Notes: a model not told the origin generated them from the sequence alone. DNA of 64,000 bases from an uncultured Bacteroidales bacterium (GCA_964452905.1 CAYVNP010000013.1:7374-71373); one strand, 5' to 3'; shown: positions 43,023 to 47,886, numbered from the stretch's first letter. Program-made: numbers and translations.

Positions 43023-46000
43023 ATGAAAAAAATTGTATCTTTTCAAATACTGATTTTATTATTATCCCTAAAAATAACAGCTCAAAATATTGGTATCAAT
43101 ACTGATGGAAGTACACCTGATGCTGGTGTAATGCTCGACATTAAGCCATCAAGCAGCGGTTCGGTTGATCCTTTGCTACTCCGAATGAGAGGCACTACAG
43201 ATGGTGCACAGTATATTGCTGTTTTATTCGGTAATAATAATTTTCAGTATTATCATACACTTAAATCAAGACACAGCAGTACAGCAAACAACAGCAATGC
43301 CCTTGATTTTTATTTATCAACCACAACATCCGGAACGCAAAAACAGGTTCTTTCTTTAACTGGAGCTGGTAATGTTGGAATTGGTACTATCGCCCCATCT
43401 GCATCTGCAATGCTTGAAATGTCATCAACATCAGGTGGTTTATTGATTCCGCGTATGACTGCTGCCCAGAAAGTTGCAATTGGAACTCCAGCCACCGGAT
43501 TATTAATTTATCAAACAGATGCTCCTGTCGGATTCTGGTATTATAATGGAACATCCTGGTTGCCTTTGTTAGGAGCAATCAGCAGCAGTGATGGTACAGC
43601 CGGTTGGTCCTTAACGGGAAATACAGGCACAACAGCAGGAACAAACTATCTCGGAACTTCCGATGCAAAAGATTTTGTTATAAAAACCAATGGCACAGAA
43701 AGAGTACGTGTAAAATCAGGAGGTAATGTTGGTATTGGGACAAATGCACCGGCACAAAAACTCGAGATTACAGGGAATACGAGGATTTCAGGAGGTAATG
43801 GTCTAGAAATCACTGAAACTGGAAATCCATTTTTACGAATTGCCTTGGACCAAAGTACGGCTGGTTATAGTTGTATCGTTAATAACTGGGGCAATAGCTC
43901 AAATCCTGGTGTTGTTGTGGGTTCAACCCGAACAGACGGAAATGCTTTTCAAGTGGGGACAGGAATTACACTTGACGCAAATTCACTCCCAAATTCCAAT
44001 GGAACTCAACGATTTTTAGTTCAAGGAAATGGTGATATCGGTATGACAGCCACTGACCTTTCTCATAGTTTACAAGGCGGAACAGTACCCTATAAAATTA
44101 CACGTCTGGTTCGCATTGCTACTGATAATGATAATGAAGATGCACTTTTTCAAATTACCAGTTCCGGGGGGTCCTCTCATATTAATCTCTTTTCTGGAAA
44201 CAGCACTGATAATCCAGCTTTTATCTGGCAACAAAACAAAAGTATTCGTTTCGGCGTATGGGATTCATGGAAAACAGCAACATTCACAAGTATGATATTA
44301 ATCAATGGAACTAACGGTTATGTTGGTATAAATAATGATGTACCTTCAGCAAGGTTAAGCATTGCTAACACTGGAGTAACGGAATTAACCGGTACTTCTC
44401 ATTCATCCACATTTCGAACAATTGCAGGTACACTTGGAAATACTGTTGGGGATCTTCTTCAGTTAGCTTCAATTGGCTATAAAACAAATCAACCAAATAG
44501 CTGTGCTCTTGGTTTTTGGTCTTACAGACATTCAACTACATCCCCTTTTCCTCATGGATGGGATGGAACATCTATAGGACTTACAATGGATGTTGACAAC
44601 TCAGCAAGAGCTGGAAATGGACTTTGGTTAAAACATAATGGCTATATTGGTATTGGCACACCGAATCCACAAAATAAATTTGAAGTCAGTAAAGACGGTA
44701 CTACCGAAGGATTTTCAGTTTCAACAGGTGGGGTTGTCAAAATAAACAATGTGTACTCATTGCCAACTGCCGTTGGAATATCAGGGCAAGCGCTTATTTC
44801 GGCTGGTGCAACATCTAACTGGGGGACACTGGGTGTAGCTGGAGGTGGAACCGGAGCCAACTCGTTAACCGGCATGATTAAAGGAAATGGAATAGGTGCA
44901 TTTACCGGTATTACAGGTACACAATGGGGAATAACCTACTGGTCAAATGCAAATACGATTGCTTCTACTGCTGCTGGTACTGCAGGGCAGGTGCTCATTT
45001 CAAATGGAGCTGCAGCGCCTGCATGGGCAAACATGAACTCCTACAATTGGAGTTTGACGGGTAATTCTGGTACCACACCCGGAACCAATTATTTAGGCAC
45101 TTCCGATGCAAAAGATTTAATCCTGTCAACGGCTGCCACCGAACGATTCCGTATTACCAGTGATGGGACTAAATTTGGTTTTAATACCGGAGGCACTCCC
45201 ACCTATAATTTTCATGTTAAACCTGCTTCAGGCAATACGATTGATGCCATGTTCACACCAACAGAATGGAATTCAACCGATGATTATTCTAAAATCATGT
45301 TAGGTTTTACTGACCATTATATTAAAGCAGCTCAAAATGCAGGAATGGATATCTATACCAATGATGATCTGAGGTTTTATACCGGAACCGGTTCGGGGGG
45401 AAGCAATGTGGGTAAACAACGGATGAAGATTGAGGAAACCGCCAATAATACGACCTATGTTGATCTGACCACGGACCCTTCTGATGCCACAGCATGGAAC
45501 AGTAGCGGAGATTTCGTGCGTCTGCGTTTGGGTGATGACAATCATTACATTCATGGAGAATATGGAGTTGGAATGACATTTAATGATGTAAATAAATTCA
45601 ATTTTACAGGCGGGAATGTCGGTATTAACCAAACTGCTCCCGAATGGAAATTGCAGATGACATCATCCGGAAATAATACACCGGATGCATTACAGGCAAC
45701 GAATGCCAATAAATCCCGATTCCTGACCGTTTTTTCCGGAAGTGAAAATGCAAACGATGATTCACCTGCTTTGGTTTGGGGTCAACGAGGAGGAACTGCC
45801 GGATTGCAGGGAAATATATTAAGACTTGGTACCTGGAACGCTTCCAGTGGATCAAGCTGGCAAGAACATTACAGGTTTTATGGGGACGGTAATACAACCG
45901 CAAATGCAACTCGGGTTGATATAAAACAAGGATATGACAGGACCACAGCAACAGATAACTATTATACTCTTGATTTACGAAAAGGTGATAATACAGATGT

Positions 46001-46481
46001 GACAGGCACCTGTGTCATTAATGATAATTTAAATGTTTATGGAACGATATGGGCTAATGGCGCTACCATTACTAACGGCTTTACTACGTGGTCTGACGGA
46101 CGATTTAAAACAAATATCTATCCGATTAATTTCCCTTCAGAAAAAATCAAGAAACTCAATGGGGTTTATTATCTTTGGCGAACCGATACATCCACTGCCG
46201 GAATTAATTTCCCGGTTGGCAAACAAATGGGGTTGATTGCTCAAGATGTTGAAAAAGTTTTTCCGGAAGCAGTAATTGAATTCAAAGGGTTAAAAACAAT
46301 TGATTACGGCAAATTAATTTCACCTTTGATTGAAGCTTTTAAAGAACAACAAATATTATTAGAACAATTGATACATGATAATCAACTTCTTGAATCAGAT
46401 AATAAAAATTTAAAAGAATATCTTGACAAACTGGATACAAGACTTAAAAATATTGAAGCATTATCTAAAACAGACAAATAG
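43023..46481 (+). CDS. Secreted tail-fibre-like protein with a C-terminal intramolecular chaperone (endosialidase chaperone / Peptidase_S74) domain
   Basis: Signal peptide. Five repeats of the G(N/Y)VGIGT..P...L.(V/I/M) collar motif. An internal duplication (WSLTGN[TS]GTT.GTNYLGTSDAKD at about aa 195 and about aa 680). C-terminus TW-SDGRFKTNIYPI...LNGVYYLWR...GLIAQDVEKVFPEAV...IDYGKLISPLIEAFKEQQ followed by a coiled coil. The predicted autocleavage Ser is codon 1024 (nt 46092). Confidence 0.85.
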   Translation: MKKIVSFQILILLLSLKITAQNIGINTDGSTPDAGVMLDIKPSSSGSVDPLLLRMRGTTDGAQYIAVLFGNNNFQYYHTLKSRHSSTANNSNALDFYLSTTTSGTQKQVLSLTGAGNVGIGTIAPSASAMLEMSSTSGGLLIPRMTAAQKVAIGTPATGLLIYQTDAPVGFWYYNGTSWLPLLGAISSSDGTAGWSLTGNTGTTAGTNYLGTSDAKDFVIKTNGTERVRVKSGGNVGIGTNAPAQKLEITGNTRISGGNGLEITETGNPFLRIALDQSTAGYSCIVNNWGNSSNPGVVVGSTRTDGNAFQVGTGITLDANSLPNSNGTQRFLVQGNGDIGMTATDLSHSLQGGTVPYKITRLVRIATDNDNEDALFQITSSGGSSHINLFSGNSTDNPAFIWQQNKSIRFGVWDSWKTATFTSMILINGTNGYVGINNDVPSARLSIANTGVTELTGTSHSSTFRTIAGTLGNTVGDLLQLASIGYKTNQPNSCALGFWSYRHSTTSPFPHGWDGTSIGLTMDVDNSARAGNGLWLKHNGYIGIGTPNPQNKFEVSKDGTTEGFSVSTGGVVKINNVYSLPTAVGISGQALISAGATSNWGTLGVAGGGTGANSLTGMIKGNGIGAFTGITGTQWGITYWSNANTIASTAAGTAGQVLISNGAAAPAWANMNSYNWSLTGNSGTTPGTNYLGTSDAKDLILSTAATERFRITSDGTKFGFNTGGTPTYNFHVKPASGNTIDAMFTPTEWNSTDDYSKIMLGFTDHYIKAAQNAGMDIYTNDDLRFYTGTGSGGSNVGKQRMKIEETANNTTYVDLTTDPSDATAWNSSGDFVRLRLGDDNHYIHGEYGVGMTFNDVNKFNFTGGNVGINQTAPEWKLQMTSSGNNTPDALQATNANKSRFLTVFSGSENANDDSPALVWGQRGGTAGLQGNILRLGTWNASSGSSWQEHYRFYGDGNTTANATRVDIKQGYDRTTATDNYYTLDLRKGDNTDVTGTCVINDNLNVYGTIWANGATITNGFTTWSDGRFKTNIYPINFPSEKIKKLNGVYYLWRTDTSTAGINFPVGKQMGLIAQDVEKVFPEAVIEFKGLKTIDYGKLISPLIEAFKEQQILLEQLIHDNQLLESDNKNLKEYLDKLDTRLKNIEALSKTDK

Positions 46482-46510
46482 TATTATATTTGATTTTAGA
46501 GTATTAACTA

Positions 46511-47797
46511 ATGACTGTAAAAAAATTCATCCCGTTGATTTTTCTGACTATTTATTTATTAATTAGTTCGGATGTCTGTGCTCAGTCCCGATTAGTAATG
46601 AATAATGACCCGTATGTTGTTTATGCCAATGGCAGTTCATCCAAACCGGTTTATCTGGTGTTGAATAACTCAAATGCAAATTCCATCACACTTTCAGGTA
46701 CAGGAGGAAACATTATTTCGGAAAATGAATATCATATATTGAAATGGAATATAGGTACTCAGACAGGGAACTATACAGTACCTTTTACTAAAACATCTGG
46801 CAATAAAATTCCATATACATTGAATATTACAAATGCAGGATCCGGTTCCGGCAATATTAAATTTTCAACCTATACTTCAAATTCAGCAAATACACCATTT
46901 CCTTCTGATGTAACTTTTCTGAATGACATTTCAACAAATTCAGATAATTCCCTAAAAGTAATTGATCGCTTCTGGATCATTGATGCGAACGGTTATACAA
47001 CCAAACCAACATCAACTATGCTCTTTACGTATTTGCATTCGGAATATGCAGCACCTAATACAATCACAGAATCAAATTTACGCGCACAACGTTTTAATTC
47101 AACACTACCTAAATGGGGAGATTATCTGCCCCAGGGAACCATAGATATCGGTGCAAACACTGTCTCATCTGTACCTGCTGCACCTGCAGATTTTTTCCGA
47201 TCCTGGACGTTGGTTGATAATTCAAGTCCCTTACCTATTGAATTACTTTATTTTAATGGTCTTTGCTCTGATAATCAATTGAAATTATTCTGGGCAACAC
47301 AAACTGAAACAAATAATGATTTTTTCACCATCGAAGAGTCCTCGAACGGTTCTGACTTTACAGAGATGAGACGAATCAAAGGCGCCGGAAACAGTAATAA
47401 AATCAGGTATTATCAGGTAAACATTCCCGGTGATGCAAATGAACAATTTTATTTCCGTTTAAAGCAAACCGATTTCAACGGAAAATATCATTATTATTCC
47501 ATAATACATCCCGAAAATAACTGTGTAAAAAAGACAACACGTTTTTTTTATTCAGTTTCTCCCAATCCTGCCACTTCAGATAATTTAAAATTGACCTTAT
47601 TCAGTCCGATACGACAGAATATTTCGGTATCTTTTTATTCATTAATCGGTCAATTGGTGTATGAAATGATATTACCCGTTGGAAATGACCAACCCATTAG
47701 TCATATTTTTCAATTGCAGCATCTCACTCCTGCAATGTATCTGATGGTACTATCAACTTCATCAAACAATTATGTTGAGAAAATTATTGTTAAATAA
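46511..47797 (+). CDS. T9SS type-A-sorted hypothetical surface protein (partner of the tail-fibre-like gene)
   Basis: Signal peptide, then the PIELLYFNG......LKLFWATQTETNNDFFTIEES.NG.DF domain common in Bacteroidota surface proteins. C-terminal SVSPNPATSDNLKLTLF...AMYLMVL...VEKIIVK is a CTD. It starts 29 nt after the upstream stop. Confidence 0.75.
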   Translation: MTVKKFIPLIFLTIYLLISSDVCAQSRLVMNNDPYVVYANGSSSKPVYLVLNNSNANSITLSGTGGNIISENEYHILKWNIGTQTGNYTVPFTKTSGNKIPYTLNITNAGSGSGNIKFSTYTSNSANTPFPSDVTFLNDISTNSDNSLKVIDRFWIIDANGYTTKPTSTMLFTYLHSEYAAPNTITESNLRAQRFNSTLPKWGDYLPQGTIDIGANTVSSVPAAPADFFRSWTLVDNSSPLPIELLYFNGLCSDNQLKLFWATQTETNNDFFTIEESSNGSDFTEMRRIKGAGNSNKIRYYQVNIPGDANEQFYFRLKQTDFNGKYHYYSIIHPENNCVKKTTRFFYSVSPNPATSDNLKLTLFSPIRQNISVSFYSLIGQLVYEMILPVGNDQPISHIFQLQHLTPAMYLMVLSTSSNNYVEKIIVK

Positions 47798-47886
47798 TCT
47801 ATTTTCATTTTTTACTTTCTACACATTAATTTTTGAATAAAAAATTAGCAAAAAATACTTATCTTTGATTTTTAGAAAAACTAAAA

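Follow-up and report, generated by a model that had tools for sequence, protein, structure and literature searches.

The window analysed here is a 64,000-nucleotide stretch of DNA from an uncultured Bacteroidales bacterium, and positions are counted from its first letter. The initial annotation singled out two genes on its plus strand, both of which are present with the sizes (1,152 and 428 aa) and the 29-nt gap that it described. The upstream gene (43023..46481, +), which we call the fibre gene on the strength of the ORF call and a Pfam S74 match, codes for a 1,152-aa member of a Bacteroidota 'PTL_trimer' or tail-fibre-domain family that resembles the mosaic adhesive trimer (MAT) fibres of Bdellovibrio. 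The downstream partner gene (46511..47797, +) codes for a 428-aa protein made up of a signal peptide, an all-beta N-terminal domain that we term parN, an FN3-like domain and a T9SS type A CTD. The pair is flanked by the housekeeping genes for LpxK (E 7.6e-80) and NIF3 (E 6.5e-82), and Pfam scans of 26 further ORFs in the window found cellular genes only, with no phage structural, integrase or lysis genes, in agreement with the initial annotation on both points.

Modules of the fibre protein

The fibre begins with a Sec signal peptide (aa 1-20; 43023..43082, +) that was read from the sequence as MKKIVSFQILILLLSLKITA followed by Q, with a predicted signal peptidase I cut between ITA and Q that places the predicted mature N-terminus at Gln21. 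The mature protein then opens with the stretch QNIGINTDGSTPDAGVMLDI... (43083..43157, +), which is conserved in the fibres that adjoin partner orthologues, where it is kept as QN[IV]GIN..G..P..SA.LD[IV]. The signal-peptide junction AQ/N[IV]GIN is the same in about 55 fibre-family members from other genomes, and this genome has a paralogue, C3, in which the constant N-terminus also occurs. Further along, the first collar and most widely conserved module (aa 112-186; 43356..43580, +) follows the pattern GNVGIGT..P...L ... GLLIPRMT..QK.AI..PATGLLIYQTD...FWYYNGTSW. Residues 115-260 of the query were best conserved in relatives, and the HMM qA, which was built from the best-conserved stretch of the fibre, matches family members.

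The five collar motifs and the internal duplication that had been noted from the sequence were also recovered. Specifically, G[NY][VI]GI[GN] motifs start at residues 116, 234, 432, 540 and 864, and WSLTGN.GTT.GTNYLGTSDAKD is found at residues 195 and 676. Smith-Waterman alignment of repeat unit 1 (aa 195-471; 43605..44435, +) with repeat unit 2 (aa 676-1009; 45048..46049, +) gave a score of 213, as compared to 63 +/- 10 for shuffled sequences. When the first 45 residues were omitted the score was 95 versus 45 +/- 7, with 0/300 shuffles reaching 95. Judged from these alignments, the duplication exceeds the WSLTGN motif and is old and diverged; a blastp self-comparison missed it, and it was the Smith-Waterman comparison with shuffles that revealed it. 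The end of repeat unit 2 is predicted to be the tip that remains after self-cleavage.

The C-terminal intramolecular chaperone (46092..46478, +) consists of an S74 core (aa 1024-1084) and a coiled-coil tail that runs to aa 1152. It thus occupies the last 129 residues, behind the fibre proper, and ends in a heptad-rich helical tail. The HMM search that had been proposed for this domain returned Pfam Peptidase_S74 (PF13884) on residues 1024-1084 with an E value of 9.6e-14 and 51.9 bits (cut-off 22). The predicted catalytic pair is intact within S1024-D-G-R-F-K1029, with Ser1024 (codon 46092-46094, +), at which SDGRFK starts, and Lys1029 (codon 46107-46109, +) five residues apart. This Ser, Asp and Lys are found without exception in the S74 domains of the family alignment (55/55). 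The MyRF ICA chain 7DC3 aligns with fibre residues 1026-1139, the heptad-rich tail included. Most likely the chaperone would drive trimerisation of the fibre and then cut itself at Ser1024 with Lys1029 as the base, whereupon a piece of ~129 aa would come free and the tip would be available for binding. Among MAT fibres, the S74 protein Bd3182 was expressed as wild type and mutant to test for trimerisation and autoproteolysis (PMC10769870).

The precomputed family annotation for the fibre is PF26696 (PTL_trimer) plus PF13884, and at least ~2,000 relatives were present among 8,000 candidates scored. Members of this family share the same N-terminus and vary in their tips, which include S74 with a coiled coil, FISUMP-like and other C-termini. 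The lack of a T9SS CTD on the fibre also held up, as no Pfam or NCBIfam CTD model matches it and it is not among the matches of an iterated CTD HMM. There is no place for such a domain on the fibre, whose C-terminus forms the distal tip and is predicted to be lost through self-cleavage.

The T9SS-tagged partner

The parN domain (aa 25-238; 46583..47224, +) spans 214 aa and was modelled by AF2 with a pLDDT of 94.3 and a pTM of 0.91. A Foldseek search of this model against the PDB gave no significant match (best E 0.28, TM at most 0.32), and no Pfam or PHROGs family matched the domain. According to the model, parN is a confidently predicted fold that has no solved structural relative. It is followed by an FN3-like beta-sandwich spacer (aa 239-340; 47225..47530, +) with fold matches to FN3 pairs and then by the type A CTD (aa 345-428; 47543..47794, +). 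The signal peptide and CTD claimed for this protein are both present, the CTD scoring above the cut-offs of Por_Secre_tail PF18962 (27.2 bits, borderline to the cut-off of 27) and TIGR04183 (29.7 bits, cut-off 23). It also matches the T9SS substrate CTD chain 8GLK_D, and PF18962 is found on most partner orthologues. The full-length partner model (pLDDT 89) returned FN3/Ig and CTD-type matches only, at low TM, and these fold searches were uninformative for the N-domain.

Relatives of the partner number more than 350, of which the best 120 are mostly 400-450 aa long, and 1,082 representative clusters were obtained at E <= 0.001. In its own genome parN is single copy, and the FN3-like domain plus CTD is common to seven large proteins at 29-54% identity. 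The order parN-FN3-CTD, with parN N-terminal and distal to the CTD, is seen in 94/140 parN representatives. The same three domains also form the C-terminal cassette of giant adhesins that have Big_9, cadherin-like or ice-binding passengers. Since parN-FN3-CTD caps these adhesins, the cassette can carry a passenger in cis. As for the secretion system itself, the genome has SprA_N (E 1.6e-165) and at least 226 type A CTD ORFs (54 per Mb), and from these gene counts we conclude that it has an active T9SS repertoire.

The spacer between the two genes (46482..46510, +; 29 nt) contains the Bacteroidota -7 box-like sequence TATATTTG at 46485-46492, 18 nt before the partner ATG. Across the genome TAnnTTTG is most frequent at 15-30 nt before the start codon (~100 per 5-nt bin versus ~20 beyond 60 nt), and the partner box coincides with this peak. 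The partner therefore probably has its own promoter. In view of this box, and of a gene order that is inverted at roughly half of the remaining loci, the initial claim that the two genes are co-transcribed is not established. A scan with a sigma-70 promoter and terminator model was discarded in favor of the TAnnTTTG count, as it found no more sites than in shuffled sequence and the model is not applicable to Bacteroidota.

Pairing across genomes and the role of the partner

Co-occurrence of the two genes in other genomes had been set beforehand as a test that could refute the pairing. We found a fibre-family gene within 1 kb of the partner orthologue in 44/64 loci with flanks, all from other species and spanning several orders. 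Fluviicola genomes are among those with the pair. All 69 fibre-family matches near partner orthologues (69/69) are on the strand of the partner, on either side of it and with a median gap of 21 nt, and no gene family other than that of the fibre is conserved next to these orthologues. S74 is present on only 12/51 of the adjacent fibres, the rest having other tips. By this sequence comparison, the conserved link of the partner is to the N-terminal module that the fibre-family members have in common and not to S74. Thus the proposed pairing stands in that the genes do co-occur, and it needs revision with regards to S74 and to how widely the partner is distributed. Specifically, among 40 genomes of the same order, fibre-family matches were observed in 24 and the partner domain in just 4, which leaves twenty that have fibre-family matches and no parN partner. 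The four are the relatives richest in fibre genes, and in them the two kinds of genes form interleaved, same-strand arrays. The small number of genomes with the partner domain indicates that the partner cannot be a universal exporter of fibres, and the twenty fibre-bearing genomes without parN, as well as a ratio of one partner to eight fibre-family ORFs in its own genome, indicate that it is not a general requirement. Literature searches on S74 in Bacteroidetes, PTL_trimer and tail fibres with T9SS found no paper on a fibre paired with a T9SS partner.

The best explanation overall, for which we see about an even chance, is that the locus codes for a chromosomal MAT-like fibre and a T9SS cargo partner that is functionally coupled to it. 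The fibre would be Sec-exported, with an N-terminal base that is constant, a tip that varies, and between them a long beta-rich stalk bearing GNVGIGT..P...L collars. We infer that it forms trimers, is cleaved, is located at the surface and is bound by the partner, a T9SS cargo composed of parN, the FN3-like domain and the type A CTD. The most likely mechanism, although we rate it at somewhat below even, is that parN docks to the constant base of the fibre and that the partner CTD supplies in trans the T9SS passage of the fibre, its surface attachment, or both. The partner carries the T9SS tag that the fibre lacks and is therefore a candidate for bringing the fibre to the surface or for retaining it there. 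A more tentative proposal is that parN-FN3-CTD constitutes the surface socket of Bacteroidota MAT-type fibres, which would bind the base and carry the fibre through, or tether it at, the T9SS. We found no precedent in the literature for T9SS hitchhiking or piggyback, or for a cargo that holds a second protein in trans.

It is also possible, although in our estimation rather unlikely, that the two genes are functionally linked without the partner being a carrier or anchor. In that case the partner would be a co-regulated T9SS surface protein in its own right, such as a second adhesin or an accessory directed at the same target, and some other route would take the fibre to the surface, to vesicles or into the medium. 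An N-terminal, CTD-distal parN is what is expected of a displayed functional head, and this alternative also draws on the -7 box of the partner, on the absence of the partner from most fibre-bearing relatives, and on a Rosetta-stone search in which no fusion of parN to a fibre module was present among the 140 parN representatives or the giant parN proteins of the relatives. It fits less well with a fibre N-terminus that stays constant while the tips vary, which suggests that it is the base that the partner recognises, as opposed to the two having a target in common, and the tight spacing and strict strand agreement of the pairs are as expected of subunit-like coupling.

We consider it improbable that the adjacency has no specific meaning and simply reflects genes for surface proteins and T9SS cargo that are abundant and clustered. 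In its favor are the abundance of type A CTD genes, the finding that 8.8% of all genes in this genome lie within 500 bp of a CTD gene on their own strand, and other fibre paralogues of this genome that adjoin unrelated CTD proteins. However, fibre-family genes are only ~0.3% of its genes, and 4/7 of the fibre genes are next to a CTD gene on the same strand, as compared to the background of 8.8% (binomial P 0.0017; the sample is small and its members are not fully independent). Chance also does not account well for the recurrence of the pair at partner loci in several orders, or for 57 of the 69 fibre-family matches falling within 1 kb with only 12 located farther out in the 10-kb flanks.

Relation to phage and MAT fibres

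Similarity to phage tail fibres, including T5-like tail fibres, was detected by tblastn only for fibre residues 837-1147, which make up its C-terminal 27%, with identities of 25-38%, and the first ~800 residues have no phage match. PHROGs tail-fibre matches to the fibre are likewise mostly C-terminal. Phage_sheath_1 (PF04984) and GPW_gp25 (PF04965) are absent from the genome, which is 98% complete in 150 contigs, so the check for a prophage or tailocin context came out in favor of a cellular locus. The proposal that the fibre belongs to a phage, a prophage remnant, a tailocin or an eCIS encoded elsewhere, for which the PHROGs matches, the fragmented assembly and the known occurrence of S74 genes as shell genes of eCIS operons (PMC8213781) could be cited, is highly improbable and largely refuted by the Sec signal peptide found on this fibre and across its family, the housekeeping flanks, the missing sheath and gp25 genes, and the restricted phage similarity. 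The locus is best explained as a chromosomal two-gene surface module and not as a phage remnant.

The S74 domain itself does have phage relatives. Those of the K1F endosialidase (3GW6) and the T5 L-shaped tail fibre pb1 (4UW8) belong to the same Pfam family, have the Ser and Lys five residues apart and are C-terminal, whereas the fibre differs from these proteins in being Sec-exported, chromosomal and free of phage similarity in its larger part. MyRF ICA (7DC3) shows how an S74-type domain serves trimerisation and self-cleavage in a cellular protein, although MyRF, a membrane-bound transcription factor of eukaryotes, is unrelated in function. In regards to the partner, it resembles T9SS type A cargo such as gingipains and the cargo of Flavobacterium and Cytophaga in its signal peptide (Gln at +1) and in the Ig/FN3-like domain that precedes its CTD. 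It is set apart from them by a sole passenger of 214 aa and by a conserved neighbour that is a CTD-less fibre.

Our preferred reading of the fibre sequence is that of a Bacteroidota equivalent to the MAT fibres found in Bdellovibrio. MAT fibres, with S74 (e.g. Bd3182) or without it (e.g. Bd2133), are like the fibre in being cellular and not viral, in their length of ~1,000 aa and in their signal peptide. Both have a family-constant N-terminal part, a long stalk, probably beta-rich in the fibre as well, with V-G-x-x-x-x-P-x-x-x-L type loops, and exchangeable tips on a constant base, S74 with SDxxxK included. The MAT capping loop V-G-G/N-x-x-x-P-x-x-x-L can be compared with the five GNVGIGT..P...L motifs. 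The best PDB sequence matches of the fibre are Bd2133 (8OND, E 7e-4), 8OJN (E 4e-3) and MyRF ICA, with the MAT matches being weak; that to the Bd2133 crystal chain 8OND covers fibre residues 98-257. The sequence link to MAT fibres is a weak one, and the family-constant N-terminus of the fibre is a candidate counterpart of the conserved beta-rich domain that follows the signal peptide in MAT fibres. The Bdellovibrio counterparts mediate prey recognition, whereas there is no sign of predation by the fibre host in the present data. A further difference is that the fibre locus has a conserved T9SS-tagged neighbour as an anchor candidate; for MAT fibres, the 'identification' of the surface anchor 'awaits further study' (PMC10769870). 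The same study characterised both S74 and non-S74 cellular fibres (Caulton 2024, PMC10769870) and already lists members of the FCB group, so the initial description of the biology of such proteins as essentially uncharacterised no longer holds.

Bacteroidota have a great many cellular phage-like fibres, as seen by the at least ~2,000 relatives scored here, and what these cells stick to is probably determined in large part by such fibres. This class of fibres raises the questions of how a tag-less trimer crosses the outer membrane or stays on it and of what holds its base, and the tightly spaced T9SS-tagged neighbour is a concrete candidate for the surface route or retention of the fibres. If parN-FN3-CTD does act as a socket, then the partner would be the first example of a T9SS cargo acting in trans to export or anchor another protein that has no tag of its own, and this would explain how fibres whose C-terminus is cut off do without a sorting domain. 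If the idea of a carrier in trans fails, then the pair would still be a useful marker cassette for annotating the fibre family, and if it holds, then the known repertoire of the T9SS would be extended.

The fibre and its relatives

The two open reading frames on which the initial annotation had focused were recovered as it described them, with a fibre gene (43023-46481, + strand, 1,152 aa) followed after 29 nt by a partner gene (46511-47797, + strand, 428 aa). The features claimed for the fibre were likewise all found. Specifically, its N-terminus reads as a typical signal peptide, MKKIVSFQILILLLSLKITA, followed by Q; collar motifs of the form G[NY][VI]GI[GN] occur at residues 116, 234, 432, 540 and 864; the motif WSLTGN.GTT.GTNYLGTSDAKD occurs twice, at residues 195 and 676; and SDGRFK begins at Ser1024. 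The proposed S74 domain was recovered by the Pfam profile Peptidase_S74 at residues 1024-1084 (E 9.6e-14, 51.9 bits, cut-off 22). The internal duplication extends beyond the short WSLTGN motif, with residues 195-471 aligning to 676-1009 at a score of 213 (63 +/- 10 for shuffles), and at 95 (45 +/- 7 for shuffles) when its first 45 residues are left out. The G+C content of the fibre gene (window 44001-46000) is 41.8% versus about 33% in the flanks, which may be a mere effect of its Gly/Thr/Ala/Asn-rich composition.

The fibre family is very large, with about 2,000 proteins at E ≤ 0.001 among 8,000 candidates scored. In precomputed Pfam annotations most relatives are labelled PF26696 'PTL_trimer' and many have PF13884 as well; some bear the name 'tail fiber domain-containing protein'. 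Relatives have in common no more than about 12% of the query, chiefly residues 115-260. In family members of other genomes the mature N-terminus is near-constant (signal peptide, then AQ|N[IV]GIN..G..P..SA.LD[IV].S..KGLLIPR). The C-termini are diverse: some consist of S74 followed by a coiled coil, some are FISUMP-like (…SVRCLKD), and there are many further types. Across an S74 alignment of 55 members, SDxxxK keeps its Ser, Asp and Lys without exception. In the organism's own genome there are three genes with S74, and fibre-family ORFs number eight altogether (~0.3% of genes).

This resembles the design of the mosaic adhesive trimer (MAT) fibres of Bdellovibrio. Those fibres start with a signal peptide and an invariant N-terminal domain, continue into a trimeric stalk whose loops read V-G-G/N-x-x-x-P-x-x-x-L, and end in swappable tips, some of which include S74; cleavage at the SDxxxK serine was demonstrated in Bd3182 (PMC10769870). 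The best PDB sequence matches of the fibre are Bd2133 (8OND; residues 98-257, E 7e-4), 8OJN and the MyRF ICA domain (7DC3; residues 1026-1139). MAT proteins of the FCB group are also already listed, from Kordia, Dokdonia, a Saprospiraceae bacterium and Salinivirga (PMC10769870, Supplementary Table S3). Together with the invariant SDxxxK, these likenesses place the fibre, by its sequence, in a published MAT-like kind.

Similarity to phage proteins is confined to residues 837-1147, where matches among 50,697 phage records, T5-like tail fibres included, have 25-38% identity; PHROGs matches are also mostly C-terminal. Pfam scans bore out the reported LpxK and NIF3 flanks and found no phage genes among the remaining large ORFs of the window, which are those of an ordinary Bacteroidota chromosome (DNA polymerase III alpha, an AcrB-type efflux operon, phosphofructokinase, RlmL, TerC), along with glycoside hydrolases and numerous genes for T9SS cargo. 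Phage_sheath_1 and GPW_gp25 had no match in the whole genome (4.18 Mb, 150 contigs, 98% complete). Thus, given this cellular setting and the C-terminal-only phage similarity, the reading of the fibre as a prophage, tailocin or contractile-injection component is unsupported, and its Sec signal peptide speaks against it as well.

The T9SS-tagged partner

The partner is composed of a signal peptide (…VCA before Q), a 214-aa N-terminal domain (parN), an FN3-like sandwich and a type A T9SS C-terminal sorting domain (CTD). The CTD had been claimed previously and passed both sorting-domain models (PF18962, 27.2 bits, cut-off 27; TIGR04183, 29.7 bits, cut-off 23). AlphaFold2 gave the whole partner a pLDDT of 89 (116 homologues) and modelled parN alone as an all-beta domain (pLDDT 94.3, pTM 0.91), for which there was no significant structural match in PDB (best E 0.28, TM at most 0.32) and no match in Pfam or PHROGs. 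More than 350 relatives have 48-61% identity over parN, the best-listed ones being mostly 400-450 aa, and the family forms 1,082 representative clusters at 50% identity. The parN-FN3-CTD architecture occurs in 94 of the 140 best representatives; the remainder have extra domains ahead of the CTD or no detectable CTD.

The own genome has a single copy of parN. In relatives the parN-FN3-CTD cassette also terminates giant adhesins, whose passengers are Big_9 or cadherin-like repeats, or a domain of ice-binding-like type. At two loci of the same-order genome G023 (contigs 27 and 61; L110, L112) it is the C-terminus of 1,056-, 2,465- and 2,530-aa proteins with passengers of these types. The final 190 residues of the partner (FN3-like plus CTD; window 47225-47794) recur at 29-54% identity at the ends of seven other own-genome proteins, on contigs C21, C3, C18, C1, C37 and C71, six of which lie in open frames of 1,300-1,900 aa, and look like a shared extended sorting module. 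SprA is present, and type A CTDs end at least 226 ORFs (54 per Mb), which for a genome of 4.2 Mb is a very large predicted load of T9SS cargo.

The earlier description of the two genes as co-transcribed was not established. Genome-wide, the Bacteroidota -7 box TAnnTTTG peaks sharply 15-30 nt ahead of start codons (about 100 per 5-nt bin at the peak versus about 20 in bins past 60 nt). The 29-nt spacer (46482-46510, + strand) holds TATATTTG 18 nt ahead of the partner ATG, at this peak spacing, so the partner probably has its own promoter. NIF3 has TATCTTTG (47860-47867) at 19 nt, and the nearest motif of this type for the fibre gene lies 176 nt upstream. No terminator-like site was seen between fibre and partner.

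Co-occurrence of fibre and partner genes

The main test of the initial annotation was co-occurrence, which held in a sample of 80 loci that carry a partner relative, drawn from genomes representing their species (Flavobacteriales, Chitinophagales, Saprospirales, Bacteroidales, Cytophagales and others). Their six-frame ORFs were scanned with three HMMs, one each for fibre residues 19-100, for residues 101-200 and for the S74 region. Both flanks reach 1.5 kb or more at 64 of the loci, and at 44 of these 64 a fibre-family gene lies no more than 1 kb from the partner (upstream at 21 and downstream at 26, with 3 loci counted in both). The 69 fibre-family matches are without exception on the partner's strand, 57 of them within 1 kb and only 12 farther out in the 10-kb flanks; the gap has a median of 21 nt and is at most 50 nt in 38 of 53 cases. 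When all neighbouring ORFs were clustered, no neighbour but the fibre family (55 loci) was conserved, and lineage-specific housekeeping genes made up the clusters that came next. Of 40 same-order genomes, only G005, G009, G013 and G023 have parN; these four are the richest in fibre matches, and in them copies of parN and fibre genes alternate along same-strand arrays. One such array (L113; G005 contig 8, 1-19900) has six fibre-family genes, four with S74, and three partners with an extra N-terminal region of 140-200 residues. This adjacency, together with the arrays in the fibre-richest genomes, makes a functional link between fibre and partner well supported.

Two loci deserve separate mention. 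At L043 (8442-9902) the fibre-family gene immediately upstream of a partner orthologue is broken into two frames (86 + 345 aa), by either frameshift or assembly error, and this locus was scored non-adjacent under the 1-kb criterion. A partner orthologue with an adjoining fibre gene (L039; JAVEPM010000111.1; P0131) sits on a contig binned as the archaeon 'Methanolobus sp.', most likely a mis-binned Bacteroidota contig.

The pairing has limits. A fibre-family gene adjoins the partner at 51 loci, and at only 12 of these does such a gene bear S74, indicating that the partner accompanies the constant base of the family and not S74. In twenty same-order genomes there are fibre-family matches and no parN, the own genome has one partner versus its eight fibre-family ORFs, and two early look-ups, of orthologues in Fluviicola riflensis and one ENA contig, found no fibre neighbour. 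Fusion of parN to fibre modules was seen neither in the 140 best representatives nor in the giant parN proteins of relatives. Some other own-genome fibre paralogues adjoin unrelated CTD proteins: a same-strand CTD neighbour within 500 bp accompanies 4/7 fibre genes versus 8.8% of all genes (binomial P 0.0017, from a small and partly dependent sample), a hint that CTD partners are of several kinds. At C12:70465-75856 of the own genome, genes for two CTD-bearing proteins (194 and 524 aa) unrelated to parN precede a second fibre gene with S74 (1,071 aa), 620 bp past which the contig terminates.

A possible carrier for the fibre

Export of the fibre by Sec is most likely, and the Gln at +1 of its mature form fits the preference of Bacteroidota for Gln following signal peptidase I cleavage. 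The fibre would then trimerise under the control of its S74 domain, cleave itself at Ser1024 and end on the cell surface with base to the cell and tip outward, as proposed for MAT fibres, whose surface element binding the N-terminal domain is stated as unidentified (PMC10769870). A C-terminal T9SS tag on the fibre would be lost with cleavage and would also be at the wrong end, so a separate tag-carrying protein bound to the constant base would solve both problems. No fibre-family member on the partner's strand has a CTD. The cassette does carry in-cis passengers in other proteins, and we tentatively propose the partner as carrier or anchor of the fibre. That it is instead a linked yet independent surface protein seems rather less likely. 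Meaningless clustering, a phage component and readings that we have not considered share what probability remains.

The fibre itself is of the published, MAT-like kind. A literature search found no paper describing the pairing of such a fibre with a T9SS-tagged protein.
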